Counted from the first letter of the stretch, positions 1 to 19,206 are shown. The stretch: 64,000 bases of DNA from Armatimonadota bacterium (GCA_041690135.1 JAWLHY010000001.1:1024001-1088000); one strand, 5' to 3'. Notes: a model not told the origin generated them from the letters alone. Translations and numbers: made by a program.

Positions 1-1407
1 TTCCAACCGGCGTCGGCCGCCGAGAGTTACGAACGTTGGATCCTCATGCGCCCGGACGGAACTCCCTTGCCCACCGACGAGCGTCCCCTTCGCCGCGCGC
101 TCCGGGGAGAGACGGTTACCCAGGATGAGGTTGCAATCCAGCGGGGTGATGGGACGCAGGGATTACTCTCGGTCAACGCGTCGCCCGTTCTGGATGAGGC
201 GGGGTCGATCATTGCCGCCGTGGCCACCTTCACCGATGTGACGCTCCAGAAGCAGCTCGAGCAGGAATTGCGCGCGAGCGAAGAGCGCTTCCGCACCCTG
301 GTCGAACAGTCGCCGTTGAGCATTCAAGTACTGGCGCCGGACGGCACCACCCTGCAGGTGAACCGGGCCTGGGAAGAACTGTGGAGCCTGACTCTGGCGC
401 AGTTGCAGCAGGTCGGCTATAACGTGCTGCAGGACCCCCAGTTGGAGCAACGGGGCATTCTTCCTTACCTACGGAGAGGGTTTGCCGGCGAGGCGACGCG
501 CATTCCGCCCATTCTCTACCAGCAGCATGAGACGCTGCCCCAGGCGGCTTCGCCGGATGATTCGGGACGGTGGGTGCGAGCCGTAATCTACCCGGTGCGC
601 AATCTGGCGGGAACGATCGAGCGGCTGGTGCTCATCCACGAGGACTTCACGGAAACCAAGCGCTTGGAGGAGGCGCTGGCGCAGCGAGTGAAGGAGCTGG
701 CCGCCGCGGACCGTCGCAAAGATGAGTTCCTGGCTATGCTCGGGCACGAATTACGAAACCCACTGAGTGCCGTGGCGAATGCGCTCCAGGTGATGGAGAT
801 CGCCCCGCCCGGCTCGCCCGCTTTCCAGCGCAGCTTCGCGGTGGCCCGTCGCCAGTTGGCCCATCAGCAACGGATCGTGGATGATTTGCTCGATGTGAAC
901 CGGATTTCGCGGGGGCGTATCCAACTCTACTCCGAGCAACTCGATCTGGCAGCTCTCGTTCGGGATGCGGTGGAGGATCGGCGCGACAGCATTCAGGCCG
1001 TGGGGCTCGAATTGTCGGAAGACATTCCGCCCAGCCCCGTCCAGGTGACCGGTGACCGTACCCGCCTGCTTCAGGTGGTGGACAACCTCCTGGACAATGC
1101 TCGCAAGTTTACGCCTCCGGGCGGCCGGATTCACGTGCGCCTCCTATTCGATCCCGCTGTGCGTGAGGCTCGCCTCGTAGTGGCTGACACGGGGGTCGGG
1201 TTGGACCCGGATCTCCGCGAGTACCTGTTCGAGGCCTTCGCGCAGGCGGAACACAGTCTCGAGCGCAGCCGTGGCGGTCTTGGCCTGGGACTCTACCTCG
1301 CCCGGAGCCTGGTGGAACTGCATGGGGGCCGCCTTATTGCGGAAAGCGGGGGGCCTGGCCAGGGCACCGAGTTCTCCGTCTATCTACCCCTCGCCGGATC
1401 GAACTGA
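1..1407 (+). CDS. PAS-domain sensor histidine kinase, 5'-truncated by window
   Basis: Frame open from base 1; PAS/PAC segments; H-box FLAMLGHELRNPL; N-box NLLDNARKFT; G1 DTGVG; G2 GLGLGL. Confidence 0.93.
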   Translation, partial: FQPASAAESYERWILMRPDGTPLPTDERPLRRALRGETVTQDEVAIQRGDGTQGLLSVNASPVLDEAGSIIAAVATFTDVTLQKQLEQELRASEERFRTLVEQSPLSIQVLAPDGTTLQVNRAWEELWSLTLAQLQQVGYNVLQDPQLEQRGILPYLRRGFAGEATRIPPILYQQHETLPQAASPDDSGRWVRAVIYPVRNLAGTIERLVLIHEDFTETKRLEEALAQRVKELAAADRRKDEFLAMLGHELRNPLSAVANALQVMEIAPPGSPAFQRSFAVARRQLAHQQRIVDDLLDVNRISRGRIQLYSEQLDLAALVRDAVEDRRDSIQAVGLELSEDIPPSPVQVTGDRTRLLQVVDNLLDNARKFTPPGGRIHVRLLFDPAVREARLVVADTGVGLDPDLREYLFEAFAQAEHSLERSRGGLGLGLYLARSLVELHGGRLIAESGGPGQGTEFSVYLPLAGSN

Positions 1408-5876: not shown

Positions 5877-6619
5877 CAAAGCTCCAGGATGCCGGTCGTC
5901 AGGTTCTCGGGCGTCTCCAGCCATTCGCGGGCCAGGATGCGCCGCCGGATGGGGCTATCCGCCACGATGTGCCCGTCCTGCACCTGCACCAGCCGCAGGG
6001 CATGGCGGGCGATGTGCGCCTCGTGGGTGACCAGGGCGATGGTGATCCCCTGGTCGCTCAGCTCCTGGAAGATCTGCATGATCTCCTCACCCATCTGGGT
6101 GGAGACGTTCCCGGTCGGTTCGTCGGCGAAGAGGATTCGCGGCTCGCCCGCGATGGCCCGCGCAATCGCCACCCGCTGCTGCTGGCCGCCGGAGAGTTCG
6201 TTCGGACGGTGGTCCATCCGGTTGGCGAGGCCCACTCGTTCCAGCGCCACCTCGGCGCGTTTCCGCCGGTTGGGGATGCCGCCGTAGACCATCGGAAGCT
6301 CCACGTTCTCCAGGGCCGTGTAAGAGGGCAGCAGGTTGAAGCTCTGGAACACGAAGCCGATCATCCGATTGCGGATCCGGGCCAGCTCGATGTCGTCCAT
6401 CGCCGAGACCTCCTCGCCGGCGAGATGGTACGTGCCGCTGGTCGGTGCGTCGAGGCACCCCAGGATGTGCATCAGGGTGCTCTTCCCGGAGCCGGAGGGG
6501 CCCATGATGGCGACGAACTCCCCGTCGCCCACCGTGAGGTCCACGCCGTCCAGCGCGCGGACTTCCTGGTCCCCCATCCGGTAGATCTTCCGGATGTCGC
6601 GGAGCGTGATCAGGCTCAT
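5876..6619 (-). CDS. ABC transporter ATP-binding protein (MacB/LolD-like)
   Basis: Walker A GPSGSGKS, signature LSGGQQQR, Walker B ILFADEPTGN, VTH. Confidence 0.96.
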   Translation of the reverse strand: MSLITLRDIRKIYRMGDQEVRALDGVDLTVGDGEFVAIMGPSGSGKSTLMHILGCLDAPTSGTYHLAGEEVSAMDDIELARIRNRMIGFVFQSFNLLPSYTALENVELPMVYGGIPNRRKRAEVALERVGLANRMDHRPNELSGGQQQRVAIARAIAGEPRILFADEPTGNVSTQMGEEIMQIFQELSDQGITIALVTHEAHIARHALRLVQVQDGHIVADSPIRRRILAREWLETPENLTTGILEL

Positions 6620-8334
6620 TGCCGGTTCCGATCCGCATCCTGCGCGTCGGTGGCCTTCACGCCCAGCCGCGGCAGGCCCGCCAGGATGACCTCCTCCCCC
6701 TCCTTCAGGCCCGAGGTCACTTCGGTCCGCGAGCCGTCGTCGACCGCGATGGTGACCACGCGCGTCTCCACCCGCTCCTTGCCCTGCTTCTCGCGGTGCA
6801 AGACGTAGACGATGTTGCGGGTGATCTCCCGGTGGACGGCTTCGGAAGGGATTAGCAACCGCTCCTTGCGGCGCCCCAGGATCAGCGTTACATCCGCGGT
6901 CATGTCCGGCCGGAGCAGGCCCCCACTATCGTCCAGGGCGATCGTCGTTTCGTAGGTCACAACGTTGTCCTTAACGGTGGAGGCGCTAGCCGCCTTCGTC
7001 ACCCGGCCCTGGAAGACGCGGTCGGGGAACGACTCCACCCGAATCTCCGCCGGGAGACCGATCCGCACTTTCCCGATATCGACCTCGTCCACGTACGCCC
7101 GCACCTCCAGCCGCTTGAGGTCCGCGACCGTGATCAGCGTGGGGGTGGCGAACCCCGCGGCCACCGTTTCCCCCTGCTGGGTGGTGATGGTCAACACCGT
7201 GCCGGTGATCGGTGAGCGGATCACGGTGCGCGCGAGCTGGACTTCCTGGTAGTCGAGGAGTGCCTGGGCCTGTTTGAGACTGGCGCGCGCCTGCACCACG
7301 GCGGAACTGGCCTCCTTCACCGCCTGGAGACGCACGGTGTTCTGGGTCAGGCCGGTTTTGCGTAATTCCAGCGAGGCTTCCGATTGGCGCACGGTCTCCT
7401 GAGCGCTGCCCGCTTCCGCGGCGCGGAGTTGGTTCTGTAGTTGACCGGCGCGGGCCGCAGTTAGGGCAGCCTCCGCCTGGACCACCTGGTTGCGGGCCGT
7501 CTGGAGGTCCGCCTCGACCTTCTCCTTCACCACTCGCTGGCTGGCCTCGGCGTTCTTAAGGCGCGCCGACGAAAGCCGGAAGGCGGTCCGGGCGTTGTCA
7601 CGGTCCTGCTGGGAAGTGAAACCCAGTTGATAGAGGCGCTCCTGCCGCTGCAGCACCCGCTGGTCGTTCTCCACGCTGGCCTTTGCTTCATCGATGGACG
7701 CCTGGGCCTGCACGAGTTGGAGATTCACCGTTTGCTTGACCTGCTGCTCCTGGGCTTTCGAGGTAGACAGGGCCGCCTCGGCGCGGGCGATCTCGGCGGA
7801 AGTCTGCGTGGGCTGGTACTCCGCGGCCGCCTCGGACATGCGCAAACGCTCCGTCGCCGCCTTCAGGGCGAAGTCGGCCTCCCGGATCTGCGCTTCCGTT
7901 TGCTCCTCGGTGAGGCGGGCATTTAGACGGGCCTGTTCCAGGCGACTTTCGGCCTGCTGCAGGTTGGCCTGGGCCACCGCCACGTTGTGCCGCTGTTGAT
8001 CCACCTGCGCCTGGAAGTCCGGCGCATCGATGACCGCGACCACCTGCCCCTCGCGCACGAGCGTCCCCACATCGGCGGGAAGGGAGGCGATCCGGCCGCT
8101 GATCTGCGTGCCGATGTTGACCCGGGCGCCTACCTGTGCGGAGACCACGCCGGTGGCGGTGATCTTCTGGTCGATGTCCCCACGCTCGACCTGCCCCACC
8201 TGGACGCCCTGCGGGAGCTTCTTGGCGTTCTCCGCACTCGCTCGCTGCTGCCAGAACCAGAACCCACCGCCGCCGGCAATAGCGACCAGAACCAAGATCC
8301 AACCCCACGAAACCCGGCGCTTCTTCGCGGCCAT
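6616..8334 (-). CDS. Efflux periplasmic adaptor (MacA/HlyD-like) with long coiled coil
   Basis: N-terminal TM after MAAKKRR; lipoyl halves QISGRI..VREGQ and RSPITGTV; VDEVDIG, LRPDMT; ORF extension to 8988 overlaps pfkA and is rejected. Confidence 0.9.
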   Translation of the reverse strand: MAAKKRRVSWGWILVLVAIAGGGGFWFWQQRASAENAKKLPQGVQVGQVERGDIDQKITATGVVSAQVGARVNIGTQISGRIASLPADVGTLVREGQVVAVIDAPDFQAQVDQQRHNVAVAQANLQQAESRLEQARLNARLTEEQTEAQIREADFALKAATERLRMSEAAAEYQPTQTSAEIARAEAALSTSKAQEQQVKQTVNLQLVQAQASIDEAKASVENDQRVLQRQERLYQLGFTSQQDRDNARTAFRLSSARLKNAEASQRVVKEKVEADLQTARNQVVQAEAALTAARAGQLQNQLRAAEAGSAQETVRQSEASLELRKTGLTQNTVRLQAVKEASSAVVQARASLKQAQALLDYQEVQLARTVIRSPITGTVLTITTQQGETVAAGFATPTLITVADLKRLEVRAYVDEVDIGKVRIGLPAEIRVESFPDRVFQGRVTKAASASTVKDNVVTYETTIALDDSGGLLRPDMTADVTLILGRRKERLLIPSEAVHREITRNIVYVLHREKQGKERVETRVVTIAVDDGSRTEVTSGLKEGEEVILAGLPRLGVKATDAQDADRNRQ

Positions 8335-8544
8335 TCGCCCATGCCCCCACCACATACCCGACTCGCCGGATAAGTATAGAGGTGTGATGGAGACCCGACA
8401 ATCGGGCCGGCTGCACTGGGCGAGCAAGCACAGCCGGGGAGGTGGGATAGCACAGTGGACATGAGACACAGAGCGTTGCTCGGCGGCTGTATTGGGGGTA
8501 GATAGGAGGGGCAACCTCGATTGCCACCCACGAGGAGTTGAACC

Positions 8545-9606
8545 ATGAGCGAGCAGCCGGACAAGATTGGGGTCTTCGTGGCCGGCGGACCGGCGCCCGG
8601 GATTAACGGGGTGATCAAGGGCGTCGTCCAGGAGGCCCACAACGCGGGCCTGCGCGTCATCGGCTTTCAGGATGGGGCCGATGGCCTGGTCAACAAGCGG
8701 ATGGTGAACCTGACGCGCAGCCGGGTCGAGGACATCCACATCCTGGGCGGCAGCATCATCGGCACGTCGCGATACCGGATCAACGCCGACGGCAACGACC
8801 TCCGCCGGATATTGAAAAACCTCCAGGAGGAGGGCATCGATGGCCTCATCTCCATCGGCGGGGAGGGCACGTTGCAGTTCGCGGACGTGCTGCGCCGGGC
8901 CGGCGTGCCGGTGATCCATGTCCCCAAGACGATCGACAACGACATCGCGGGGGTGGATGAGACCTTTGGCTTCGATACGGCGGTCCACGAGGCCTCACGG
9001 ATGTTGACCGCCATCAAGTTGGACGCCGAGGCGGGCGACAACTGGTTCATCGTGGAGATCATGGGTCGCAACACGGGCCATCTGGCCCTGGAGGCCGGGC
9101 TGGCGGCCGGATGCACGCGGGTGTTAATTCCGGAAGACGGCCCCATCAGTGTGGACGAGCTGAGCGACACGATGCGGGCCCGGGCGCGCAGTGGGCGCAA
9201 CTGGGGCGTGATCCTGGTGGCGGAAGCTTCCCACTTCGGGCAGGGCGCCATCACCCGTTACGGGCGGCTAGGGGGCGTGTGTGACGAGTTGGCGATGCGC
9301 CTGGACGTTGCCTGCCATCTGAAGGGGCTTGCCTGTAAGATCCGGACGAGCAATCTCGGATACTTCCTGCGCTGCGCCGAGCCTACCGGTCACGACCGCG
9401 CTTACGCCGCCATGCTCGGCCTGGGTGCCGCGCGCTTCATTCTCGACCCGAGCCGCTCGGGGCAGATGGTGGTGGTCCGCGACGGGCAGTTGGACGGCCT
9501 GCCCATGGAAGAGGTTGCCGGCAAGATCAAGCCGGTGGACCGGAACGGGATCCTCTACCAGGCACTCAAAGCCGTCGAGAGTTACGAAGCCACTCCCAAG
9601 ACCTGA
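8545..9606 (+). CDS. pfkA: 6-phosphofructokinase (PfkA family; GGEG plus PKTIDND, likely ATP-dependent)
   Basis: GGPAPG, GTSR, IGGEGT, PKTIDND, FGFDT, EIMGR; AGGAG RBS. Confidence 0.9.
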   Translation: MSEQPDKIGVFVAGGPAPGINGVIKGVVQEAHNAGLRVIGFQDGADGLVNKRMVNLTRSRVEDIHILGGSIIGTSRYRINADGNDLRRILKNLQEEGIDGLISIGGEGTLQFADVLRRAGVPVIHVPKTIDNDIAGVDETFGFDTAVHEASRMLTAIKLDAEAGDNWFIVEIMGRNTGHLALEAGLAAGCTRVLIPEDGPISVDELSDTMRARARSGRNWGVILVAEASHFGQGAITRYGRLGGVCDELAMRLDVACHLKGLACKIRTSNLGYFLRCAEPTGHDRAYAAMLGLGAARFILDPSRSGQMVVVRDGQLDGLPMEEVAGKIKPVDRNGILYQALKAVESYEATPKT

Positions 9607-9756
9607 AACCCCATCCTGTCCATCTTGTCTGCTCCCTCCGCACCCAGGCGATACATCCCGGAACCGGCGCCTCCCAACTTTCGTCCTAGTGATGGATGAT
9701 CACAGTATCCCCGTCCCCCACTTTTGGTCGGACCTTACCGCCTCTCGGATAGACCC

Positions 9757-10086
9757 ATGGATCCACAGTATCTGCCGTACGTATGGCTGGGCGCTTCCCT
9801 GCTCGGCGCGGTGCTTCTCGATTTTGTGGTCGTGCGGATATTGCTGGACCTGGTCCGGCCTACGACGGCCTATGTCTTTTGGATCGGGCGGGCGGGTAAG
9901 CTGGTAGCGCTGCTGGGCTGGTGCGTGTTCTTCAACCGCTTCTGGTACCCGACCTACCTCGGGCAGGGAGCGGCTGCTCCGCCGATGCTCGGGGCGATCG
10001 AGTGGGCAGTGGCCGGGATCATGATCTTACTGGCGGCAACTTCTCTTCCTCGCGGCTTTGCCGGAAAGGGCACTCCGGATGCCTGA
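9757..10086 (+). CDS. Small membrane protein (~3 TM), hypothetical
   Basis: 109 aa with three hydrophobic stretches; stop overlaps start of tubulin-like gene. Confidence 0.65.
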   Translation: MDPQYLPYVWLGASLLGAVLLDFVVVRILLDLVRPTTAYVFWIGRAGKLVALLGWCVFFNRFWYPTYLGQGAAAPPMLGAIEWAVAGIMILLAATSLPRGFAGKGTPDA

Positions 10087-13000
10087 CACCCTCGTTATTG
10101 GCCTGGGCGGAGCCGGCGCGACGGTTTGCCGTCGCCTGCTGGAACGGATCATTCCCGCATTCGACAGCCCGGTTCCGGCCTTCGGGCGGGGAGTGCGCCC
10201 GCCGGACGTGCTGGTCCTGGATACCGACCGGGGGACCGGACAGGTGTTCGGGGACCGGAGCCTGGTGCTAACGGCGAACACCGCGGTCCTTGATGCCGCC
10301 TACCGGACGCCGGAACGGTTCCACGCGGAGTGGATCGACCGCCGCATCCTGCGGGGCCGCGGCTCTCTGGAGCAGGGCACCCGCGGCCAGCGGATGCTGG
10401 GGCGGTTCCTGTTCCTGCTGCCGGAAAACCGCGGCGCGGTCCGCGAGCGGATCGGCAAGTGGCTGAACAACCGTCCCGACAAGGAGGCGCCCGCGCGGGT
10501 CTATGTGGTGGCGGGCGCGTTCGGCGGCACCGGCGGCGGCGCATTGGTGGATCTCGGTTATCTGCTGCAGGACGCGGCCGCTCAGGCCGGGGCCGGGCTG
10601 GATGCGCGCGGCATCCTCTTCGTTCCCCCGCCGGGCGACGCGCAGACCTCCCCCAACAGCTTCGCGACTCTGACTGAGCTCCACTATTTCGCCGACCCGT
10701 TCACCCGCTACCGGGCGCACCTCGACGACAGCGACACTCCCTTCGAAACCCGCCGCGCGCCCTATTCGCGGGTGAGCCTGCTGACCTCCGTCACTCCGGA
10801 AGGCGGCACGCTGCCGCTGGTCGAGCTGCAGGAGCGGGCCAGCGTGTACCTGTTGACTGCAACTATGGCGGACGACGGCCACTGGGAGAAGGAACGGGGG
10901 CAGCGCGAAGGCCAGATCCACGCGGTGGATACCGACGGAAACCCGCAGGTCTTCTCCACCTTCGGTACGGAGTGGGTCGAGTATCCGGAAGATCGCCTGG
11001 TCAGCGCCGTCTACCGCAACCTGGTCCGGCGCTCGCTGGTCCCGTGGCTTTCCGGCGATCATCCCGTGAGCGTGGCGGATATGCGTCCGGACCTGCCGAT
11101 GACCGACCCCGAGGCGCTTGCGGCGCGGATGGTGCCGGTGCGCCCGGGCGATGAGCCGCCGGAGGCGATCTACCGCCCGGTGAAGACCCGGCTCCCGTGG
11201 ATCCACAAGGCGCCCGCGCACCAGTGGAACGTGATGGACCAGGAGTTGACGGCGCAGCTTACCGAGGCGACCGGAATCCCTCCCTCTCCGGGGCGTCCGG
11301 GCAAGGGGCCGGTGGCGGAGAAATACCGGGCCTTGCGGGAGGAGGCCCTGGCCGGTTTCCGCCAGCGGGCGCGGGACCGGATGTGCCAGGAGAACACGAG
11401 CCTGGAGCGCGTCGCTCGGGCCCTGAACGAGGCCGCCGCCGAGCTGCGGACCCAGGTCGATCCCGTGGCCCAGTGGGACGGCGCCCGGCAGGCCGGCGAG
11501 ATGGCCCGGAGGCGGGTCTTGTGGTGCGGCGCCGCCGTCCGCAAGGACCCCTTCCTCTTCTTCTGGCGCCGGGTCGCGCTGCAGAAGCTGGCCCTCGATT
11601 ACGATCGCATCGCCCGCCTGTACATCTTCTCCCACTTCCAGGCCTCCACGCTCCCCTACCTCAAGGAGCTGCGGGAGTTCCTGCTCGAGCCCGTGCGGAC
11701 TTGGGCGGGACGAATCGGCGAGGCGGGCGCCCTGTTCGCCAAGCTGAGCCGCGCCTGGGCGGACCACGAATCCGCCATGCTGGAGCGCCTCCGGAAGGAT
11801 GAGGAAGAGCACCGCCTGGCGCTGGGAATGCTGCGTCTACCCGGCGCGGAGACGCCCTACGTCGCCAACTCCGGGTGGAACCTCCCCTATTGCCGCCCGG
11901 AAGATGAAAAGGCGGCCATCCGGGACCTGCGGGCCGGTTGGATCCAGCTCCTCGTCGACCGCGAGGACGGGATCCTGGCGCTCCCCGGCCGGTCGGTCCT
12001 GGACGGCACCGCCGCGGAGACCCGGGAAGACCGCCTTCCCTGGCTGATGCCGTCTTCGTACTCGGCGCTCCCCGAGGCGGCGACCGCGCAGATGCGGCAG
12101 GTGGTCAGCCTGATCGACCGGGAGCTGCGCACTCGCCTGGAAGACCGGCTCCGCACCTGGCTTTCCGCCACGGCCTTCCAGCGCCTGGCCGAGCAGCACC
12201 GCGACCCGATCCAGCTCGAGTTCGAGCTGCGGCGGATGGTGAACGTTTCCAGCGAGCTGCCGGCGCTGGAGCCGCCGCATGCCCGGCCGGCTGGTCTCCC
12301 GCCGGAGTATCAGCTCATTTTCTTCAGCGATTTGAAGACCGGGCAGGTGCCTTCGGCGCTGAACATGGTGGTGGACGGAGCCAACCAGGAACATCCCACG
12401 TGCCTGGTGCCGTCGCGCTCTCCGCACTACCTCACCGCCGTCACCGAACATGCCGGTTTCGCCCTCTCCCGCTGCCCCGCTTACCACCACCTGGAAGAGG
12501 TCTACCGGGAATGGTACCGGCGATTGGATGCGGAAGTCCCGCTTCCGTTCAGCCGCGCGGACGTGCCCTGGCTCTCCGCTACGCTCGTAACGGGAGAACG
12601 GATGCGCGCGGCGTCCGACGTGCTCCTTCTCGCCCTGGCACTCGGAATTCTGCATTCCGGGCCGGATGGTCAGATCCCCCTTCCGGGCAACATCATCGCG
12701 CCCGAACCGCGCGAGCCCCGGTTTCCGCTGCCCGGAGAGTTCGATCTCGCGGTGCGCCAGCTCGCCGGAGATACGGCCGCCCTGGCAGCCGTAGCCCAGG
12801 CCGTCGATCGGGCGGTCCAGGGACGCGGTGCTTCCTGGTGCTCGCTTCAGGTCGAGCGAGCCCTGCGCGGCGAGTTGACGCTGCCGGTCACCTTTCCCGG
12901 CACCAACCCCCTGCTGCAGCACCGGTCGCTCCGGCTGGCGGCCCAGCGGGCCGTGTCAAGATACGAGGACTTGCTGGAAGAGTTCGCGGGCACGCCCACC

Positions 13001-14344
13001 GCGCGCGACAGCCAGTGGCTCGCCGTGGGGCCGCGGCACTACTGCCCGGCTTGCGCCCAGGACCTGGGCGAAAGTGCCGAGGCGCTGCCCGGGTTCTGCC
13101 CCAGTTGTCGCGAGCCGCTGCTGCTCCACAAGGCGCACAACGTGGCGGCCTCGGACGGCTTCCGGCGCATTCCCAACCCGTTCGTCGTCGGCACGCCGCT
13201 CGAGACGGGCACGAACGTCTTCGTGGGTCGCGAGGACATCGTCCAGCAGATCCGCGACCGCCTCATCCGGCCGGCGCAGCGGACGATTCTGATTCTCATC
13301 GGCGAGCGGCGCTGCGGCAAGACCTCCGCGCTCCGCCAGTTAAAGAACCAGCAGTTGGGCGACCTGCATCCCCTCTTCATCGACATGCAGGGCCTCACCG
13401 CCACGGATCTCCCCGGGTTTGTCTGGTGGCTCGCCTGGCGGATGAAGGACGCGCTGGACGAGCGGGGCGTGCAGGTCGAGTTGCCGACCTGGGAACAGTT
13501 CAGCTCCAACCCACCGGACTACCAGTTCGAGACGGTAATCCTGCCCGAGGTGCGCCGGAAGCTGCAGGGCGGTCGCGTCCTCCTGATGCTGGACGAGTTC
13601 GAAGTGCTCGCCCAGCGCGTGATCAACGGCACCTTCGACTCCCGTGCCTTCGACTACATCCGTCACCTGATGCAGCACGGCGAGGGCATCGAGTTCCTGT
13701 TTGCCGGCACCCACGTGCTGCGGCAGTTCGCGGCGAACTACGTCACCTTCCTGTTCAACATCGGCGTGTTCCTCGGAGTCGACTTCCTGCGCCCGCAGGA
13801 CGCGCTCCGGCTGGTCCAGGAGCCGGTTCAGGCCGCGGGGGTCACTTACACCGAAGAGGCCCTTGCGTCGATCCTGGAGTTGGGCGGGGCGCATCCCTAC
13901 TTCTCGCAGATGTTCGGGTTCCACCTGGTGGAGCGGTTGAACCGCCTGCGGAAGCGGAACGTGACCCGCGACGATGTGGAAGAAGAGGCCGGACCCGTGA
14001 TCGCCGCGGCGGGCGCTCACCTCGACCACGTGTGGGGCCAGCTTGGCGGCGCGGATCGCCTGCTGATCTCCTTCTTCACCGACTTCTGTCCGCGCGGGAA
14101 GTGGGCGCGTGAGGATGAGTTGCTGGCCGCCGCCATCCGTGACGATTCCACGCTTCGCCCGTTCATCTTCCGCACCGCCGTGGAGAAACTGATGGCCGTT
14201 GGCCTGCTCCGCGCGCGGCAGGAAAACACGGACGACGGCCGGCAGGTGCGCACGCTCGCCCTCACGGCCGAGGTCTACCGCCAGTGGCTGCAGACTTCTC
14301 ATGGTTACAGTCGCCTGCGGGAAGAGGGCGTGACCTGGGAGTAG
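10079..14344 (+). CDS. Tubulin-like (Tubulin_2/FtsZ-like) domain + Zn ribbon + STAND-type P-loop ATPase fusion
   Basis: VIGLGGAG, VLDTD, GQRMLGR, GAFGGTGGG, NSFATLTEL; CPAC..CPSC; NPFVVG, FVGRE, GERRCGKTS, LMLDEFE, GAHPYF. Confidence 0.85.
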   Translation: MPDTLVIGLGGAGATVCRRLLERIIPAFDSPVPAFGRGVRPPDVLVLDTDRGTGQVFGDRSLVLTANTAVLDAAYRTPERFHAEWIDRRILRGRGSLEQGTRGQRMLGRFLFLLPENRGAVRERIGKWLNNRPDKEAPARVYVVAGAFGGTGGGALVDLGYLLQDAAAQAGAGLDARGILFVPPPGDAQTSPNSFATLTELHYFADPFTRYRAHLDDSDTPFETRRAPYSRVSLLTSVTPEGGTLPLVELQERASVYLLTATMADDGHWEKERGQREGQIHAVDTDGNPQVFSTFGTEWVEYPEDRLVSAVYRNLVRRSLVPWLSGDHPVSVADMRPDLPMTDPEALAARMVPVRPGDEPPEAIYRPVKTRLPWIHKAPAHQWNVMDQELTAQLTEATGIPPSPGRPGKGPVAEKYRALREEALAGFRQRARDRMCQENTSLERVARALNEAAAELRTQVDPVAQWDGARQAGEMARRRVLWCGAAVRKDPFLFFWRRVALQKLALDYDRIARLYIFSHFQASTLPYLKELREFLLEPVRTWAGRIGEAGALFAKLSRAWADHESAMLERLRKDEEEHRLALGMLRLPGAETPYVANSGWNLPYCRPEDEKAAIRDLRAGWIQLLVDREDGILALPGRSVLDGTAAETREDRLPWLMPSSYSALPEAATAQMRQVVSLIDRELRTRLEDRLRTWLSATAFQRLAEQHRDPIQLEFELRRMVNVSSELPALEPPHARPAGLPPEYQLIFFSDLKTGQVPSALNMVVDGANQEHPTCLVPSRSPHYLTAVTEHAGFALSRCPAYHHLEEVYREWYRRLDAEVPLPFSRADVPWLSATLVTGERMRAASDVLLLALALGILHSGPDGQIPLPGNIIAPEPREPRFPLPGEFDLAVRQLAGDTAALAAVAQAVDRAVQGRGASWCSLQVERALRGELTLPVTFPGTNPLLQHRSLRLAAQRAVSRYEDLLEEFAGTPTARDSQWLAVGPRHYCPACAQDLGESAEALPGFCPSCREPLLLHKAHNVAASDGFRRIPNPFVVGTPLETGTNVFVGREDIVQQIRDRLIRPAQRTILILIGERRCGKTSALRQLKNQQLGDLHPLFIDMQGLTATDLPGFVWWLAWRMKDALDERGVQVELPTWEQFSSNPPDYQFETVILPEVRRKLQGGRVLLMLDEFEVLAQRVINGTFDSRAFDYIRHLMQHGEGIEFLFAGTHVLRQFAANYVTFLFNIGVFLGVDFLRPQDALRLVQEPVQAAGVTYTEEALASILELGGAHPYFSQMFGFHLVERLNRLRKRNVTRDDVEEEAGPVIAAAGAHLDHVWGQLGGADRLLISFFTDFCPRGKWAREDELLAAAIRDDSTLRPFIFRTAVEKLMAVGLLRARQENTDDGRQVRTLALTAEVYRQWLQTSHGYSRLREEGVTWE

Positions 14345-14377
14345 GCACGTAACCGGTCCCACCCCAAGGCGTCGGAG

Positions 14378-15667
14378 CTAAATGCCAGGGGTGGGACCGG
14401 TGTAGCCGGTCAGCTCCACGTATCCAACCCCGGCCACCGGCACATTGCGGTCCTTCCCTTCCACCCGCACGCTGCCTTCCCAGTAGGTGATCCCCGTGCT
14501 CTTGCCGGTGGTCAACTCCTGGTCCGCCACCGTGGGGGTCAGTTGGAGGTCGATCCCTTCTTCCGGGACTTTCACCTGCCACGCCGCGGGATAGACCGCG
14601 CCGGACTTCGAGCTCTTCCAGCTCTTCTGGTTCTCGATCTGGAAGGCGGCGAGGGGGAGGTGCTTCCAGGTGCCGTCCGCCTGCACGACCGTGCCACTCG
14701 ACATCGGCTCGATGCCGCCGCCCTGGAGGCGCAGGACGTACAGCATCAACTCGCGGCCGTTGTCGAGTTGCAGACTGAACCAGTCCCAGCCCTTCTGCAC
14801 CGGCGTTAACTGGTTGCTGCCGAACTCGTGGTCCATCCAGGAAAGACCCGTCACCTGCAGCTTCTCGCCCTGGAACGTCAGGGTGCCGGAAGTCTCCAGG
14901 CGGGTCATCGAATAGTAGTGCGAGGCGCGCCCCAGGCCGGCCGACTTCTGGCTGACCCCGTCGTGCCCGTGGACCACCGGCGCTTTTGCCGGGTGGAGGT
15001 CCAGCTCGATGGCGAACTCCGGGGCCGAGGCCCGAAGCCGGTGGGTCAGGTCATCGGCCAAGAGCTGCGCCGACCAGTCGTGGACCCACACATGGTAGCG
15101 GTCGGTGCGCGCCCCCGCCATTCCCAGGGCCGGGCGGCTGATTTGCTCCGTAAAGCGGAAGGTCCGCTGGTTCTCATCCGTAAGGGTGAAGTGCGCAAAG
15201 TAAAGCGTGTGCAGCGCCCAGGCGGACCGGCTCCGCTTCCGCTCCGGATCGATGCCCACCTGGAAAAAGGTCAACTCGAAGCCGAACTTCCGCTTCCCCT
15301 TCGCCAGGTGCCCCGTGTAATACCACCACTCCGTCTGGAACTCCGGGTGCGCCGCGTGATCCCGCGGGAAGTTGAACTGGTAGCCCGGAAGCGCCAGGAG
15401 ATACCCCCCTTCGGGATTAGGATTAGGATTAGGATGAAGATGAGTATTAGGAGCGGCGGGGGGCTGAGGCGGCGGTGTTCTTGCACCTGATGGATGTTTG
15501 GGTCCGGATCGATCGATGCTGGGGGACGCTTCCGAACTGGTCCGAGGAGGGGTGCCACGCGCCGGGAGGGCCGTTGGCGACGTTGCCGAGTATGCCACGG
15601 TGGCGGCGACCACGGTTCCCAACGCCAGGACTGCTCCGAGTATGCTTTTGAGGCCAATCTGAATCAC
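14378..15667 (-). CDS. Lipocalin-like AttH/CrtC family secreted protein
   Basis: FPRDHAAHPEFQTEWWYYTGHL, WMDHEFG, GWDWFSLQL, YWEG; signal-like N-terminus; GTG start 15667 uncertain. Confidence 0.88.
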   Translation of the reverse strand: MIQIGLKSILGAVLALGTVVAATVAYSATSPTALPARGTPPRTSSEASPSIDRSGPKHPSGARTPPPQPPAAPNTHLHPNPNPNPEGGYLLALPGYQFNFPRDHAAHPEFQTEWWYYTGHLAKGKRKFGFELTFFQVGIDPERKRSRSAWALHTLYFAHFTLTDENQRTFRFTEQISRPALGMAGARTDRYHVWVHDWSAQLLADDLTHRLRASAPEFAIELDLHPAKAPVVHGHDGVSQKSAGLGRASHYYSMTRLETSGTLTFQGEKLQVTGLSWMDHEFGSNQLTPVQKGWDWFSLQLDNGRELMLYVLRLQGGGIEPMSSGTVVQADGTWKHLPLAAFQIENQKSWKSSKSGAVYPAAWQVKVPEEGIDLQLTPTVADQELTTGKSTGITYWEGSVRVEGKDRNVPVAGVGYVELTGYTGPTPGI

Positions 15668-15765
15668 TTCGGCTTTGTCCCTATCGCCCGGCGACAGCAC
15701 GCCGGCGCTTTTCCCGTTCCCTATTCGCTCTATTCGCGTTATTCGCGGATCGCTTCCCTTCCCGA

Positions 15766-18369
15766 TCAATCCACCCGCATCGCCTCCGCGGCGACCTTGT
15801 TCGCGGCCAGGCGCGCGGGGACCAGGCCGGCGATAATAGCCGTCACCACCATCAGGACCACGGTCTGGACGAAGAGCCACGGCTCCAGGGTCCAGCGGAT
15901 GCTCCAGCCGAAGAACTGCTTGTTGATGACGTAGGTCAGCAGCAGCGAGAGCGCGATGCCGCAGACGCAGCCCAGAGCGGCGCCGATCAAACCGAGCAGA
16001 CCGCTCTCGACCAGGACCATCTTCCGGACCTGGCTGCGCATCGCTCCTACGCCGCGCAGCACGCCGATCTCTCGGCCGCGCTGCAGGATCAGCGCGGTGA
16101 GCGTGCTGATGACCCCCAGCACGGCCACCAGGATGGAGATTCCCTGGAGCGCATAGGTAATCTGGAAAGTCTGGTCGAAGATCACCATCACCCGAGACCG
16201 GAGCGTCCGGTTGGGCGTGACGTAGAGCGCCGCCCGGTCGCCCACGGCCGCCACGAACCGGTTGCGCACCTGGGAGACGTCGACACCCGGCTCGACATAG
16301 ATCGCCAGGCTCTCCGTCCGGCGGTCGCGCCACAGCTTCCAGAAGAGCGGGTAGTGGACCATCACCGCGCCGGCATCGGTGCTGTAGTCGTAGTAGATCC
16401 CCTCCACCCGCATCGGCGTCTCGCCGGCGGGCGTGGGCATCCGGATCGTGTCTCCCTCTTTCACCCGGTTGCGGAACGCGAAACTCTCCGAAACGATTGC
16501 CCCCTCCCCTTCCCGGGCCCGCGCCAGGATCTCGGCGGCATCCCCGCGGAGGAACTGCAACTGGCCGTGCTCTTCCTGCACCCGGAAGTTGATCCCCGCA
16601 ACGTAAGCGAGGCGGCCATTGTGGGTGACCTGGACCGATCTCAGCGTGTCCACGGCAGCTACCCCTGGCAGGTTTTCCGCTGCTTCGACGACCTCCGGCG
16701 GCAGGGCGGTCGCCGCGCCGGAGATGGTGCGGCCCACGGCCTCCACATACAGGTCGCCACGGATCGTCTGGCTGACCCAGGTGTCCACGGTCTTGCGGAA
16801 GCTGCCCACCATGATGGAGAGGCCGATCATCATGCCCACTGAAACCATCAGGGCCGCCACAACGACGCTGGTCCGGGCCACGGCCTCACGCAGGTAGCGG
16901 GCGCCCAGCATCCCTTCGATGCCGCCCACAGCACGGGCCAGGGGGGAAAGCAGCCGCTCTCCCAGCAGCGTGGTGCCGGGGGAGAGCAGCGAAAACCCGA
17001 TCAGCAGCAGGAACGCGCTGGCAAAGCCCCCGAGGGGCTGGCGCTCGCCGACGGTCCACGCCGCGAAGCCCGCGGCGGCGGCCAGCGTGGCGAAGCCTGC
17101 AACGGTGAACTTACCGAGGGGAAGCGGCTGGGCCTCGATCAGCGTGCCCTGCCTCACCGTGAGGCTCGGTGGCGTGAGCGAGGCCTCGATGGCCGGCCCC
17201 AGCGCCGAGAGGAGCGACATCCCCATCCCCAGCAGGAACCCCAGCGCATAGACCCGCGGGTCGAGATAGACGTTCTCCGCATGGACCACCAGGTACAGCG
17301 CGCTGATGGTCCGGGACACGGCGTGCAGCGCGCCCTGGGCCATCAGCGTTCCCAATGCCAGGCCGGCAAGACTCCCCGCAAAGCCGAGGAACAGCGCCTC
17401 CAGCAGGAAGAGACGCACTACCTGTCCACGCTCCAGTCCCAGGCTTCGCAGGATTCCGATCTCCCGCCGCCGGCGCAGCACGCTCATCGACACGGCATTG
17501 AAGATCAGGAACATGGACACGAAAAGGGCGATGAACGAGAGCGCCGTCAGGTTGAGGTCGAAGGCGCGAACCATATTCTCGACCTGCTGCGTCCGCCCCT
17601 GGGGCTGCGCCACGCGGACGTGGGCCGGCAACTGCCGCTCGATCGTCGCCCGGACCTGTTCCTTCTTCTGGGGATCGACGAGCAGATCGATCCGGTCGAG
17701 CTTGCCGAAGCGCTCGAACACTTCCTGGGCTACCGCGATGTCGGTGATGACGACGTTGCCCCCCATCGCCTGCTGAAGCTCCGGCGAGTCGAGGATCTGG
17801 CGCACGTTGAGAGTGAAGAGCCGGGCACCCGCCACCACAGTTACCGGGTCGCCTTCCTTCAACGCGTAGCGGTCGGCCAGCGAGCGGGTGACGGCGATAG
17901 CACGCGGATCGGTGAGAAACCGGAGCGCGGCAAACCGCTCCTCGCGGCGCGGCGGCTCGTACCGGGCAAACGGCTCTTCCGCGAACAGGTCCAGGCCCAG
18001 CAGCAGCAGGGTCTCCGGATAGGCCGTATCCTCGGCCGTTTTGAGCGAGATGGCCGGTCCCGTGGCCCGGCCCGGCGCGGCGCGCACGTGGACCTGGACG
18101 ACCGGGGCTGCGGCCTGCACTCCCGATGTGGATCGGATCGTCGTATAGAAGCGCTCGTCGAAGCCGCCCGTGTCCGAGACCACCTGGAGGTTGGCCTTCC
18201 CCGCCACGGCATCCACCGTATCGGCGAACGAGGCCATCGCGGAGTGGTTGGCGAGGCGGATACTGACGAAGACCGCCACCCCCAGGGCCACGCCCAGTAT
18301 GGTCAGCAGGCTGCGGCCGCCCTCCTGAAACAGGTGGCGTAGGGTAATCCAACGCGAAAGCGGGCCCAT
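15766..18369 (-). CDS. ABC transporter permease, double FtsX-type (AttF/G-like)
   Basis: RSLLTILGVALGV; RRREIGILRSLG and RGREIGVLRGVG repeats; sits between ATPase and AttH-like gene. Confidence 0.92.
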   Translation of the reverse strand: MGPLSRWITLRHLFQEGGRSLLTILGVALGVAVFVSIRLANHSAMASFADTVDAVAGKANLQVVSDTGGFDERFYTTIRSTSGVQAAAPVVQVHVRAAPGRATGPAISLKTAEDTAYPETLLLLGLDLFAEEPFARYEPPRREERFAALRFLTDPRAIAVTRSLADRYALKEGDPVTVVAGARLFTLNVRQILDSPELQQAMGGNVVITDIAVAQEVFERFGKLDRIDLLVDPQKKEQVRATIERQLPAHVRVAQPQGRTQQVENMVRAFDLNLTALSFIALFVSMFLIFNAVSMSVLRRRREIGILRSLGLERGQVVRLFLLEALFLGFAGSLAGLALGTLMAQGALHAVSRTISALYLVVHAENVYLDPRVYALGFLLGMGMSLLSALGPAIEASLTPPSLTVRQGTLIEAQPLPLGKFTVAGFATLAAAAGFAAWTVGERQPLGGFASAFLLLIGFSLLSPGTTLLGERLLSPLARAVGGIEGMLGARYLREAVARTSVVVAALMVSVGMMIGLSIMVGSFRKTVDTWVSQTIRGDLYVEAVGRTISGAATALPPEVVEAAENLPGVAAVDTLRSVQVTHNGRLAYVAGINFRVQEEHGQLQFLRGDAAEILARAREGEGAIVSESFAFRNRVKEGDTIRMPTPAGETPMRVEGIYYDYSTDAGAVMVHYPLFWKLWRDRRTESLAIYVEPGVDVSQVRNRFVAAVGDRAALYVTPNRTLRSRVMVIFDQTFQITYALQGISILVAVLGVISTLTALILQRGREIGVLRGVGAMRSQVRKMVLVESGLLGLIGAALGCVCGIALSLLLTYVINKQFFGWSIRWTLEPWLFVQTVVLMVVTAIIAGLVPARLAANKVAAEAMRVD

Positions 18370-18372
18370 CGC

Positions 18373-19107
18373 TCAGCGGCCCTCGTCCCGCACGACCCGG
18401 CCGTCCCGCAGTTCCACCGTTCGGCGCGCGACCGCCGCGGCTTCCAGGCTGTGCGTGACCAGAACGACCGTTACCCCGTGACGATCACCCACCTTCCGCA
18501 AGAGATCCATTACCTGTTCGGCAGTGCGGGAGTCGAGGTTGCCCGTCGGTTCATCCGCCAGGATCAGCGTGGGGTTGTGAATGAGCGCCCGGGCAATGGC
18601 GGTCCGCTGCATCTCACCCCCGGAAAGCGTGTGCGGCCGCGCGTTACGGCGATGGGCCATGGATACCTCGTCCAGCAGGGCGTCGGCGCGGGCCAAGGCA
18701 TCCTTCTCCGGATCGCCCGCCAGCAGCGCCGGCAGCGCCACGTTCTCGCGGACCGAAAGCGTGGGCAGCAGGTTGAAGAACTGGTACACCATCCCGAGCT
18801 TCTCGCGCCGCATCCGGGTGAGGGCACCGTCATCGAGGCGGCTCAGCTCGCGGTCGTCGATCCAGATCTGGCCGGAGGTCGGTTGATCGATCCCGGCGAG
18901 GAGGTTCAGGAGAGTGCTCTTCCCCGATCCGCTGCGACCGAGGATCGCCACGAATTCGCCGTGCGGAATGGAAAGTGAGATTCCATCGACCGCACGCACC
19001 CGCTGCTCGCCCAGCGGAAAATCCTTCACCACCTCCACCAGGCGCACAGCGGCGGCTTCGTAAGTATTCGCAACGCGGTTCTCAGGCAGGCTTTCCAGGC
19101 TCGTCAT
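18373..19107 (-). CDS. ABC transporter ATP-binding protein (AttE/LolD-like)
   Basis: GRSGSGKS, LSGGEMQR, ILADEPTGNLD, VTH. Confidence 0.95.
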   Translation of the reverse strand: MTSLESLPENRVANTYEAAAVRLVEVVKDFPLGEQRVRAVDGISLSIPHGEFVAILGRSGSGKSTLLNLLAGIDQPTSGQIWIDDRELSRLDDGALTRMRREKLGMVYQFFNLLPTLSVRENVALPALLAGDPEKDALARADALLDEVSMAHRRNARPHTLSGGEMQRTAIARALIHNPTLILADEPTGNLDSRTAEQVMDLLRKVGDRHGVTVVLVTHSLEAAAVARRTVELRDGRVVRDEGR

Positions 19108-19206
19108 GGGACATTCGTTCTCAGGGATCCAGCACTTCCGGGCAAACAATTCACTCTATCCTATACGCGGCCGAAGCGGATGCAAGGCAGCAAAAAGGGA
19201 GTGGCA

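Follow-up and report, generated by a model that had tools for sequence, protein, structure and literature searches.

A conserved two-gene locus in Armatimonadota encodes a small membrane protein and an FtsZl1 tubulin-like protein fused to a winged-helix ATPase

FtsZl1 proteins, a branch of the tubulin superfamily, were described by Makarova and Koonin (2010, Biol Direct 5:33, PMC2875224) as starting with an FtsZ-like domain, which an extended coiled coil connects to an alpha-helical domain at the C-terminus; T6-H7 and the tubulin C-terminal domain were not identifiable in them in that sequence analysis. The association of FtsZl1 proteins with nucleoside triphosphatases (NTPases) is a theme present there and in Kaur et al. 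(2020, PMC7159879), where tubulin-plus-GTPase modules are set beside STAND NTPases as an analogous means of generating NTP-dependent multimers; for Tubulin_2 proteins, the available text of Santana-Molina et al. (2023, PMC9871819) mentions kinase fusions and 'irregular' architectures and no others. Usual FtsZl1 loci are large and variable and hard to dissect. Here we describe, in a 64,000-nucleotide stretch from an Armatimonadota soil bacterium (GCA_041690135.1 JAWLHY010000001.1:1024001-1088000; hereafter the window, with coordinates counted from its first letter), a conserved locus of just two genes, which encode a small membrane protein and a giant FtsZl1-ATPase fusion that carries its regulatory NTPase within the same chain. 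Both parts of the fusion belong to described but experimentally uncharacterised families. A fusion of FtsZl1 or Tubulin_2 to a STAND or AAA-type ATPase was not found described in the literature, although the architecture supplements of the 2010 and 2020 studies cited above may list one; likewise, full-text literature searches returned no description of the strict small membrane partner or of the family-core distribution.

The locus is a translationally coupled two-gene operon. Its features, all on the plus strand, are as follows (window coordinates, with the basis of each assignment in brackets).

9757-10086, +: gene 1, a 109-residue polytopic membrane protein of no known family (translation, hydropathy, conserved synteny)
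10079-14344, +, stop codon 14342-14344: gene 2, the 1421-residue FtsZl1-ATPase fusion (frame, Pfam, homologues)
10079-10086, +: overlap ATGCCTGA of 8 nucleotides between the start of gene 2 and the stop of gene 1, TGA 10084-10086 (sequence; translational coupling)
10079-11068, +: tubulin/FtsZ-type GTPase domain plus core helix, residues 1-330 (Pfam, hhalign, model, fold searches)
11069-12298, +: helical insertion of about 410 residues (331-740), which corresponds to the FtsZl1 'coiled coil' and contains long helices, the longest of 52 residues (model secondary structure)
12299-12583, +: alpha/beta domain, residues ~741-835, in place of the FtsZ/tubulin C-terminal domain (aligned ranges; boundaries approximate)
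12584-13033, +: helical domain, residues ~836-985, the alpha-helical C-terminal domain of FtsZl1 (hhalign against stand-alone FtsZl1 proteins, model)
13034-13114, +: Cys4 zinc ribbon, C989, C992, C1007 and C1010 (invariant cysteines)
13160-14341, +: ATPase module, residues 1028-1421 (Pfam AAA_22, model, Foldseek and VIA)

The open frame of the large gene extends over 10058-14344 on the plus strand (1428 codons counted from a TTG), and its ATG at 10079 yields the 1421-residue protein with the N-terminus MPDTLVIGLGGAG...; the upstream frame, 9724-10086, contains an ATG at 9757, consistent with the starts of aligned homologues, which gives the hydrophobic product of 109 residues. A preliminary description made from the sequence of the window alone had pointed out that the start of the large gene overlaps the stop of the small membrane gene, and the overlap is indeed present at 10079-10086, with a purine-rich GGAAAGGG about 8 nucleotides before the ATG of gene 2. 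Judged from coarse coordinates rather than from bases, the layout of four related loci (L003, L006, L008 and L019) is compatible with a similar overlap and that of a fifth (L015) has a gap. All motifs quoted in the preliminary description were recovered, in the N-terminal half at residues 8 (GLGGAG), 48 and 284 (DTD), 103 (GQRMLGR), 149 (GGTGGG) and 193 (NSFATLTEL), and in the C-terminal half at 989 (CPAC), 1007 (CPSC), 1033 (NPFVVG), 1048 (FVGRE), 1075 (GERRCGKTS), 1169 (LMLDEFE) and 1270 (GAHPY).

The fusion is real, and the domain architecture assigned to the large protein, FtsZl1 plus ATPase, is close to certain. A word-indexed protein search recovered 41 proteins, comprising the query, 26 close full-length relatives (1350-1457 amino acids, 57-66% identity, 97-100% coverage), three distant full-length relatives (P0032, P0033 and P0035; 38-41% identity), three fragments and eight ATPase-only proteins (seven of ~1600 amino acids and one N6-methylase protein); the 29 full-length fused relatives, which share the architecture first noticed in the window, come from several sources, and those with names are labelled 'tubulin-like domain-containing protein' and belong mostly to Armatimonadota. 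The family was located in six loci on genome contigs (L003-L008, of which L007 lacks its 5' end) and in seven on metagenome contigs (L015-L021), among which L016 and L020 duplicate the L005 and L008 contigs and the 5' end is missing from L017, L018 and L021. A small-protein homologue is encoded immediately upstream of the large gene in 7/7 independent loci that include upstream DNA (L003, L004, L005, L006, L008, L015 and L019).

Whole genomes gave a corresponding picture, the contig loci and genomes being drawn from overlapping collections, so that their counts are not independent. The large gene is present in all seven genomes (six genera) of one bacterial family, f1, where a contig end truncates one copy and an in-frame TGA divides another; in the only genome of the sister family, 88% complete, it was not found, and no full-length copy was found in 53 further genomes of the phylum, which gave only partial matches, to the ATPase alone or to the tubulin-like domain alone. 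The small-protein profile matched six of the seven family genomes, always adjoining the large gene, the seventh being without that DNA, and 0/54 of the other genomes, a profile built from these same sequences. This strict co-occurrence across genomes, together with the position upstream in every locus, bears out the compact two-gene system that the preliminary description had envisaged. In four genomes compared, the large protein is 59-62% and FtsZ 74-79% identical, the same genome being the most divergent in both, and the unit is a single-copy core gene pair of the family, apparently vertically inherited.

The N-terminus of the large protein matched Pfam Tubulin_2 (PF13809) with an E value of 1.1e-23 and 84.5 bits against a cut-off of 27, over residues 5-318 and profile positions 1-353 of 356, and the fold searches below place tubulin-superfamily chains on top; the tubulin-like N-terminus first recognized from its motifs is thereby confirmed. 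Tubulin_2 was matched by 17/19 family members, whereas Pfam Tubulin (PF00091) gave no match for the window protein at E <= 0.1 and was matched by 4/19 relatives (best E 1.6e-6). When residues 1-975 were compared exhaustively by phmmer with 1.84 billion cluster representatives, 441 proteins were returned at E <= 0.001, 61 at <= 1e-10 and seven at <= 1e-30; FtsZl1 is a widespread branch of the tubulin superfamily. Among the best 150 of the 441, full-length fused representatives numbered only two (P0016 and P0033), the remainder being largely ~1000-1100 amino acids long and matched chiefly over residues ~3-330, some to ~545-570; four of these 150 exceed 1300 residues, namely two of the present family and two protein-kinase fusions (P0052 and P0146, one with a Macro domain), and five further proteins of 1110-1250 residues that were checked are kinase fusions as well, none with another ATPase. 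For the large protein NCBIfam gave no match, and sequence searches of the PDB with the protein and with the family profile found nothing beyond one match at E 0.15.

To define the extent of the FtsZl1 part, alignments of 19 fused members (A1) and 42 stand-alone FtsZl1 proteins (A3) were compared, and a joint alignment comprised 74 sequences. The hhalign comparison of A1 with A3 gave a probability of 100 and an E value of 2.9e-73 over 955 columns, covering A1 columns 1-985 (to about residue 1015) and A3 columns 17-1053 of 1063, and the A3 consensus itself ends in YYCxxC..LG..CxxC. Because the alignment runs end to end and the terminal Cys4 ribbon is shared, residues 1 to ~1015 are, by homology, a complete FtsZl1 protein with the organisation given by Makarova and Koonin (2010). 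The four ribbon cysteines are invariant in 19/19 family members and conserved in at least 90% of the 74 sequences, the 42 stand-alone proteins included. Thus the Zn ribbon noted earlier stands as a Cys4 motif but not as a separate linker element, being the ordinary FtsZl1 C-terminus, and the fusion event therefore joined a whole FtsZl1 protein to an ATPase. The idea that the ribbon was brought in by the ATPase was dropped, a CxxC pair being found in 0/8 stand-alone ATPase relatives, while stand-alone FtsZl1 proteins end in one.

In the GTPase domain the T1 loop (GLGGAG, residues 8-13), the T4 loop (GGTGGG, 149-154) and a long helix (304-325) serve as landmarks, and hhalign of a profile (A4) against the genome's own FtsZ aligned both loops (probability 86.5, E 4.6e-6). 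The two loops are retained in 17/19 aligned members and conserved in at least 90% of the 74 sequences. The GGTGGG in place of GGTGSG that had been remarked upon is a trait of the fused family: among the 17 intact loops, 13 have Gly at this position and 4 have Ser, in contrast to Ser in at least 90% of the 42 stand-alone FtsZl1 proteins. The family thus resembles FtsZl1 in its end-to-end alignment, Cys4 ribbon included, and in coexisting with a canonical FtsZ, but differs in the usual T4 serine, in adding a C-terminal ATPase and winged helix of ~400 residues, and in its setting, with no vWA, kinase, GTPase or OmpA operon partner and the 109-residue membrane protein as the only conserved one.

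The genome also encodes, on another contig (L064, 8355-13025), a second, stand-alone FtsZl1 paralogue of 1084 amino acids, which matches Tubulin_2 at 135.9 bits and shares 27% identity with residues 3-407 of the fused protein. A 470-residue gene of no Pfam family lies 3 nucleotides upstream of it, and vWA was found in 0/9 genes scanned there.

The AlphaFold2 model of residues 1-1020, computed from the 74-row alignment, reached a mean predicted local distance difference test (pLDDT) of 93.5 and a predicted template modelling score of 0.85, and it resembles CetZ, tubulin and FtsZ at Z 20-27. All 50 matches listed by Foldseek in the PDB were FtsZ, CetZ or tubulin chains over ~310-350 columns. With VIA-align, CetZ (3zid_A) superposed at Z 27.0 and a root-mean-square deviation (rmsd) of 3.8 over 313 of 360 residues (model range 1..820, chain range 1..346), and tubulins at Z ~24 with 335-350 residues aligned (model range 1..839). 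A fold scan of 48,161 representative chains, independent of Foldseek, placed the tubulin superfamily in all of the top 17 positions (CetZ, BtubA, Asgard and Odin tubulins, tubulins, TubZ, FtsZ, gamma-tubulin and PhuZ; Z 15.8-26.1), the next chain following at Z 8.6. Two-domain targets reach model residues 794-839, whereas 7yop_A, of which just the N-terminal part is aligned (158 residues, chain 10..171), reaches 241 only, and the sole beta-containing region of the model past residue 330 is 744-794; because of these aligned ranges and the lone beta region, residues ~741-835 are taken as the counterpart of the C-terminal domain, a placement read off the ranges rather than from a residue-level alignment. 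The model therefore suggests that both tubulin domains are present, split by the helical insertion of ~410 residues after the H7-like helix 304-325. This insertion, which corresponds to the long helical region of the preliminary description and has long helices in the predicted model, can be aligned with stand-alone FtsZl1 proteins and gave only weak, unspecific helical matches in the fold searches (Z < 8, for example Smc coiled coil at Z 7.7). The predicted complete two-domain fold would revise the 2010 sequence-based view that FtsZl1 proteins miss the C-terminal domain, and its retention makes FtsZl1 polymerisation a concrete, testable expectation. In the tubulin/FtsZ superfamily an acidic residue of the T7 loop completes the active site of the adjacent subunit.

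The C-terminal ATPase module opens with the NPFVVG..FVGRE lead-in, followed by Walker A (GERRCGKTS, 1075), Walker B (LLMLDEFE, 1168-1175) and FAGTH (1208); then come a helical domain with GAHPYF (1270), an invariant AHLDH (1313), a winged helix and a conserved tail ending in W1420. In the window protein Pfam AAA_22 was matched at 34.1 bits (cut-off 27) over residues 1067-1216, AAA_14 and AAA_16 scored below their cut-offs, and nSTAND1, NACHT and NB-ARC gave no match at E <= 0.1. Across the 19 members, AAA_22 was matched in 19, AAA_16 in 16, ATPase_2 in 9 and nSTAND1 in 5 (best E 3.5e-8), and Walker A (G1075-ERRxGKTS) and Walker B (L1168-LMLDEFE) are invariant in all of them. The model of residues 976-1421 (38-row alignment, pLDDT 78.9) combines a P-loop domain built on a parallel sheet with a helical domain and a winged helix, in agreement with the Walker A/B ATPase with winged helix proposed earlier. 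The top Foldseek match was Cdc6/Orc1 (2qby_A, E 3.1e-9), followed by 1w5t, by PAB2304, a Walker ATPase of archaea (2qen), and by plant NLR NB-ARC domains, and a wide VIA scan left its leaders tied at Z 10-12, among them wheat NLR 9h2l_A (11.9), 2qen_A (11.7), Cdc6 1fnn_B (11.5), WRR4A, Avs3 (8dgc_A, 11.1), MalT (8bob_D, 10.8), CED-4 (10.2) and SSO1545. The module thus belongs to the STAND/Orc-Cdc6 group of winged-helix ATPases, within which the fold alone leaves the members tied.

The narrower label STAND-type, used in the preliminary description, is plausible, the module being nSTAND1-like by the Pfam matches of its relatives. Like STAND NTPases (nSTAND1, PF20703), it has Walker A/B, helical domain and winged helix in STAND order, and nSTAND1 is matched in 5/19 relatives; unlike them it has no C-terminal sensor repeats, the module standing at the very C-terminus, its Walker B reads hhhhDE rather than DD, the window protein itself has no nSTAND1 match, and the fold is inseparable from Cdc6/Orc1 and from archaeal PF01637 ATPases (2qen, 2fna). 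The earlier remark that no TPR or WD40 sensor is visible holds, since neither family was matched and the protein ends ~25 residues past the winged helix. The GxP motif of the STAND helical domain was reportedly described by Leipe and colleagues in 2004. A GxP-like GAHPY is present at 1270 as had been noted, but with GxxP spacing (G1270-A-H-P), and the proline is found in only 7/19 aligned members, 12/19 having alanine.

The ATPase is the most constrained part of the large protein. Fifteen close homologues are on average 81% identical to it over residues 1028-1255, the nucleotide-binding domain, 74% over 1256-1335 and 64% over 1336-1421. Outside the module the values are 53-58% for each of the tubulin N-terminal, insertion, C-domain, helical and ribbon segments, 72% for the short core helix (304-330) and 47% for the 15-residue linker. 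In the three distant members the ATPase is 69-72% identical and the other segments 14-56%.

Just past the FAGTH strand lies the most invariant stretch of the large protein, an aromatic hydrophobic 21-mer, VLRQFAANYVTFLFNIGVFLGV (window 13715-13780, residues ~1213-1234). It has the highest hydropathy of the protein (19-residue mean 1.48), is the only poorly predicted part of the ATPase core (pLDDT < 50, model residues 239-259), and shares several invariant residues with propeller-ATPase relatives; it could be an oligomer interface or a membrane-touching element.

Relatives of the ATPase, at 30-39% identity, carry the module in the same C-terminal position behind variable N-terminal parts: FG-GAP/PQQ beta-propellers (P0036, P0041), an N6 DNA methylase (P0043), HEAT repeats (L065, L066) or, in the L067 relative, a second ATPase with TPR at its N-terminal side. 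Pfam nSTAND1 was matched among them at 46.7 bits in P0041, 29.1 in P0036 and 53.2 in L067 (cut-off 27.1). The repeat-plus-ATPase proteins (FG-GAP/PQQ propeller proteins P0036-P0042; HEAT proteins of L065 and L066) and the tandem ATPases of ~445 amino acids (L024, L026, L035, L041, L046), in which the closest homologues of the ATPase are found, have in common with the fused family the NP[FY]..G.P....F.GR lead-in, the G.RR.GKTS Walker A and the C-terminal ATPase with winged helix, but have N-terminal repeats or none, and neither a tubulin-like domain nor a zinc ribbon (0/8 examined); no homologue of the small protein was found in ATPase-relative loci at E < 1e-3. On metagenome contigs, relatives occur as tandem pairs (L024, L025, L026, L035, L041, L044, L046) in which a stand-alone ATPase of ~445-480 amino acids precedes a longer ATPase-containing gene, an arrangement that recalls the two-gene STAND systems mentioned in Kaur et al. 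(2021, PMC8195603).

The small protein has two strong membrane segments by hydropathy, residues 6-36 and 74-98, while a middle segment (~46-66) falls under the 1.6 threshold in this copy and above it in 2/5 other copies tested (L003, L019). The three-transmembrane partner of the preliminary description thus stands for two segments and is uncertain for the third, and the sequences are best read as having two to three transmembrane segments. Its homologues are 35-45% identical, always directly upstream of the large gene, and ten residues are invariant in six sequences (L20, D22, R27, P35, R45, K48, P65, A93, P98, R99). Neither Pfam nor PADLOC gave a match; the sole NCBIfam match, to an EmrE family, lay far below threshold (E 0.048, 14.1 bits, cut-off 162), and in the ESM Atlas the top score of 0.87 had no named family, the nearest named cluster being phage holin at 0.82, inside the chance range. 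When the small protein was modelled in complex with the C-terminal part of the large one (residues 976-1421), the prediction scored 0.00, which is uninformative either way.

STAND and Orc/Cdc6-type ATPases act as ATP/ADP oligomerisation switches. As a tentative reading, to which we give somewhat less than an even chance as a whole, the locus may specify an ATP-gated, membrane-linked tubulin-like assembly. The ATPase would be a built-in ATP/ADP oligomerisation switch that takes over the role of the separate vWA, GTPase and kinase partners, or other ATPases, of ordinary FtsZl1 operons; ATP-dependent self-association of the C-terminal module would gather the tubulin-fold parts, or release them, and would thereby control whether the FtsZl1 part forms a GTP-dependent higher-order assembly, anchored at the cytoplasmic membrane by the co-translated small protein. 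Such an assembly would serve to organise the membrane or envelope in this particular lineage rather than to divide the cell, because canonical FtsZ is encoded elsewhere in the same genome, and such a function is favoured over defence because the unit is single-copy, occurs in every family genome, tracks the divergence of FtsZ and has housekeeping neighbours. The fusion speaks for FtsZl1 proteins acting together with an NTP-driven oligomerisation switch, and the two-gene locus offers a minimal construct for FtsZl1 biochemistry and cryo-electron microscopy. A bolder version, which we consider improbable, would give a STAND-type switch a cytoskeletal output: a C-terminal ATP-driven ring would template the tubulin-fold domains and, through the small partner, nucleate a GTP-dependent FtsZl1 filament or tube on the membrane, like a self-contained gamma-tubulin ring complex, possibly seeding the stand-alone FtsZl1 paralogue.

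Several points weigh against the proposed ATP-gated assembly. Its polymerisation, GTPase activity, ATPase activity and membrane association are predicted properties, the binding of the small to the large protein is putative, and no experimental work on any FtsZl1 protein was found in the literature. Glycine replaces the T4 serine of stand-alone FtsZl1 proteins. In the distant fused members P0033 and P0035 (38-41% identity) the T1 and T4 loops are degenerate and Tubulin_2 is not matched, while the ATPase is kept at ~70% identity, which suggests that the tubulin-like part of this branch no longer binds GTP; since these two loops have decayed there, GTP binding may be dispensable for family function. 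Relatives of the ATPase carry HEAT, beta-propeller or TPR domains N-terminal to it, which fits a sensing or scaffold-arm view of FtsZl1. Finally, the sample holds just seven family genomes, all kin.

The leading alternative, which we judge unlikely though far from negligible, is a conflict or anti-phage system. In it an nSTAND1-like immune switch would be paired with the tubulin-like assembly as effector or as bait or decoy (for example for phage tubulins), and the small protein would be a sensor or a membrane-damaging effector, on the model of two-gene systems with a 5' membrane gene and a 3' STAND gene. Kaur et al. (2021, PMC8195603) defined nSTAND1 within predicted counter-invader systems, and Kaur et al. 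(2020, PMC7159879) interpreted FtsZl1-type tubulins accompanied by vWA proteins and GTPases as conflict systems in which the tubulins are multimer-forming effectors. The EACC1 systems of the latter work share the gene order, a small transmembrane gene 5' of a large multidomain gene that can contain nSTAND1; compared by description only, they differ in that the small protein has one conserved transmembrane helix and the partner usually starts with a caspase or cyclase, whereas two to three transmembrane segments and Tubulin_2 are found here. Also in keeping with a conflict role are the HEAT, FG-GAP/PQQ propeller, TPR and N6 methylase parts of the ATPase relatives and the variation of neighbourhoods between loci.

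Other observations speak against it. Defence genes are usually patchy in distribution. The unit is single-copy in 7/7 family genomes and was not found in full length in 54 others of the order and phylum, and for this reason its occurrence looks like vertical descent rather than defence-type patchiness. No defence-type family was found among 20 flanking proteins, and no nuclease, protease, TIR or pore effector was recognizable by Pfam. With PADLOC-DB 2.0 the large protein gave one marginal match only (PDC-S01, E 0.0018, 15.2 bits), and the small protein and three neighbours gave none. In addition, the putative sensing arm is not hypervariable, at 53-58% identity. The defence option raised in the preliminary description is weakened by the presence in every family genome, the housekeeping neighbours and the marginal PADLOC result, and is less likely than a lineage-specific membrane or envelope function. 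It stays a serious rival because the sample is small and made up of kin, and because the clade of the ATPase is, apart from this family, typically found in predicted conflict systems (Kaur et al. 2021, PMC8195603). The family-core pattern and the housekeeping neighbours bear on the question whether tubulin-like systems are cell-biological machines or conflict systems.

The conservation profile of the protein supports a further possibility, with a low probability overall, in which the ATPase would be the functional core and FtsZl1 a sensing or scaffold arm, possibly GTPase-independent, that replaces HEAT, propeller or TPR domains and reads the state of the membrane or envelope through the small protein. 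The nucleotide-binding domain is 81% identical against 53-58% elsewhere (69-72% against 14-56% in the distant members), P0033 and P0035 lack the T1/T4 glycine loops and a Tubulin_2 match, and relatives have repeat domains N-terminal to the same ATPase and winged helix. This interpretation accounts poorly for the T1/T4 loops kept in 17/19 members and in at least 90% of the 74 sequences, and for a whole two-domain tubulin fold retained at high model confidence. Nor is any output domain visible besides the winged helix, whose net charge is -3 to +3 across the 19 members.

Far less probable is a role in DNA segregation or positioning, in which a fused TubZ-TubR (type III partition) or an Orc/Cdc6-like device would use the polymer to move DNA bound by the winged helix and zinc ribbon. 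The C-terminal module does have its best Foldseek matches in Cdc6/Orc1, TubZ proteins match the N-terminal model at Z 19.8-22.5, the combination of a tubulin-superfamily fold with a winged helix being shared with TubZ-TubR, and the winged helix aligns with TubR (4asn_A, Z 10.2, rmsd 2.4, 88 aligned). However, many unrelated winged helices score equally, this one is not basic, and the zinc ribbon is general to FtsZl1 proteins. In contrast to TubZ-TubR, no centromere-like iterons flank the operon (9300-10100 and 14200-15000 contain short repeats in two copies only), the gene belongs to the chromosomal core of the family, an AAA-type ATPase is present and the strictly coupled partner is a membrane protein. 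Practically negligible is an artefact in which two genes were joined by an assembly or frame error: one relative (L008, with a matching genome) is split in two frames by an in-frame TGA, but an assembly-fused reading frame is refuted by a frame uninterrupted in the window and in 26 + 3 full-length relatives, intact in 4/6 other family genomes (the remaining two having the contig end and the in-frame TGA), and by conservation that is continuous across the FtsZl1/ATPase junction.

The split copy itself (L008 5992-10247, also in L020 and the genome match) consists of two overlapping frames of 615 and 820 amino acids with one in-frame TGA, in a genome that is 69% complete, and could be an assembly error or a real pseudogene.

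Around the operon, neighbours differ between loci, the shared exception being a phosphofructokinase gene in L003 and L006. Among the 20 flanking proteins of seven related loci and the window, the 15 with Pfam matches are metabolic or housekeeping (among them EamA, Fe-S, methyltransferase, CrcB, acyl-CoA dehydrogenase, DUF1501, hybrid histidine kinase, DNA ligase, nitrilase, gamma-glutamyltranspeptidase, aminotransferase, PDZ, dual-specificity phosphatase and CrtC), and none of the 20 matched a vWA, kinase, GTPase or defence family. The absence of the usual vWA, kinase and GTPase partners, noticed in the preliminary description, therefore extends by Pfam from the neighbours in the window to these flanking proteins.

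Downstream, between the convergent ends of the large gene and a CrtC-like gene, one further feature was identified.

14352-14401, no strand: perfect 14-nucleotide inverted repeat ACCGGTCCCACCCC / GGGGTGGGACCGGT with a 22-nucleotide spacer

The repeat has no T-run and was missed by the terminator scan; it is a possible bidirectional transcription stop. The promoter and terminator scan returned 0 promoters and three terminator-like sites against 3.2 expected by chance, and Rfam gave no match within 9000-15000. In a search of sequencing runs, one soil-metagenome DNA run contained a 0.07 share of the query words, and no RNA run was among those listed as containing them.

In one locus (L003 10308-10763) a 151-residue dual-specificity phosphatase gene (PTP-SAK, Tc-R-P), not seen in the other loci, overlaps the end of the large gene by ~10 nucleotides. 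In the window, parts of two MacB/HlyD-type export systems flank the operon (6616-8988, 15766-18369 and 18373-19149, all on the minus strand), and the minus-strand frame at 14378-16333 encodes 651 amino acids with CrtC and lipocalin domains that begin only at residue 334; the long N-terminal extension of this frame runs into the FtsX gene and probably reflects a wrongly chosen start codon.

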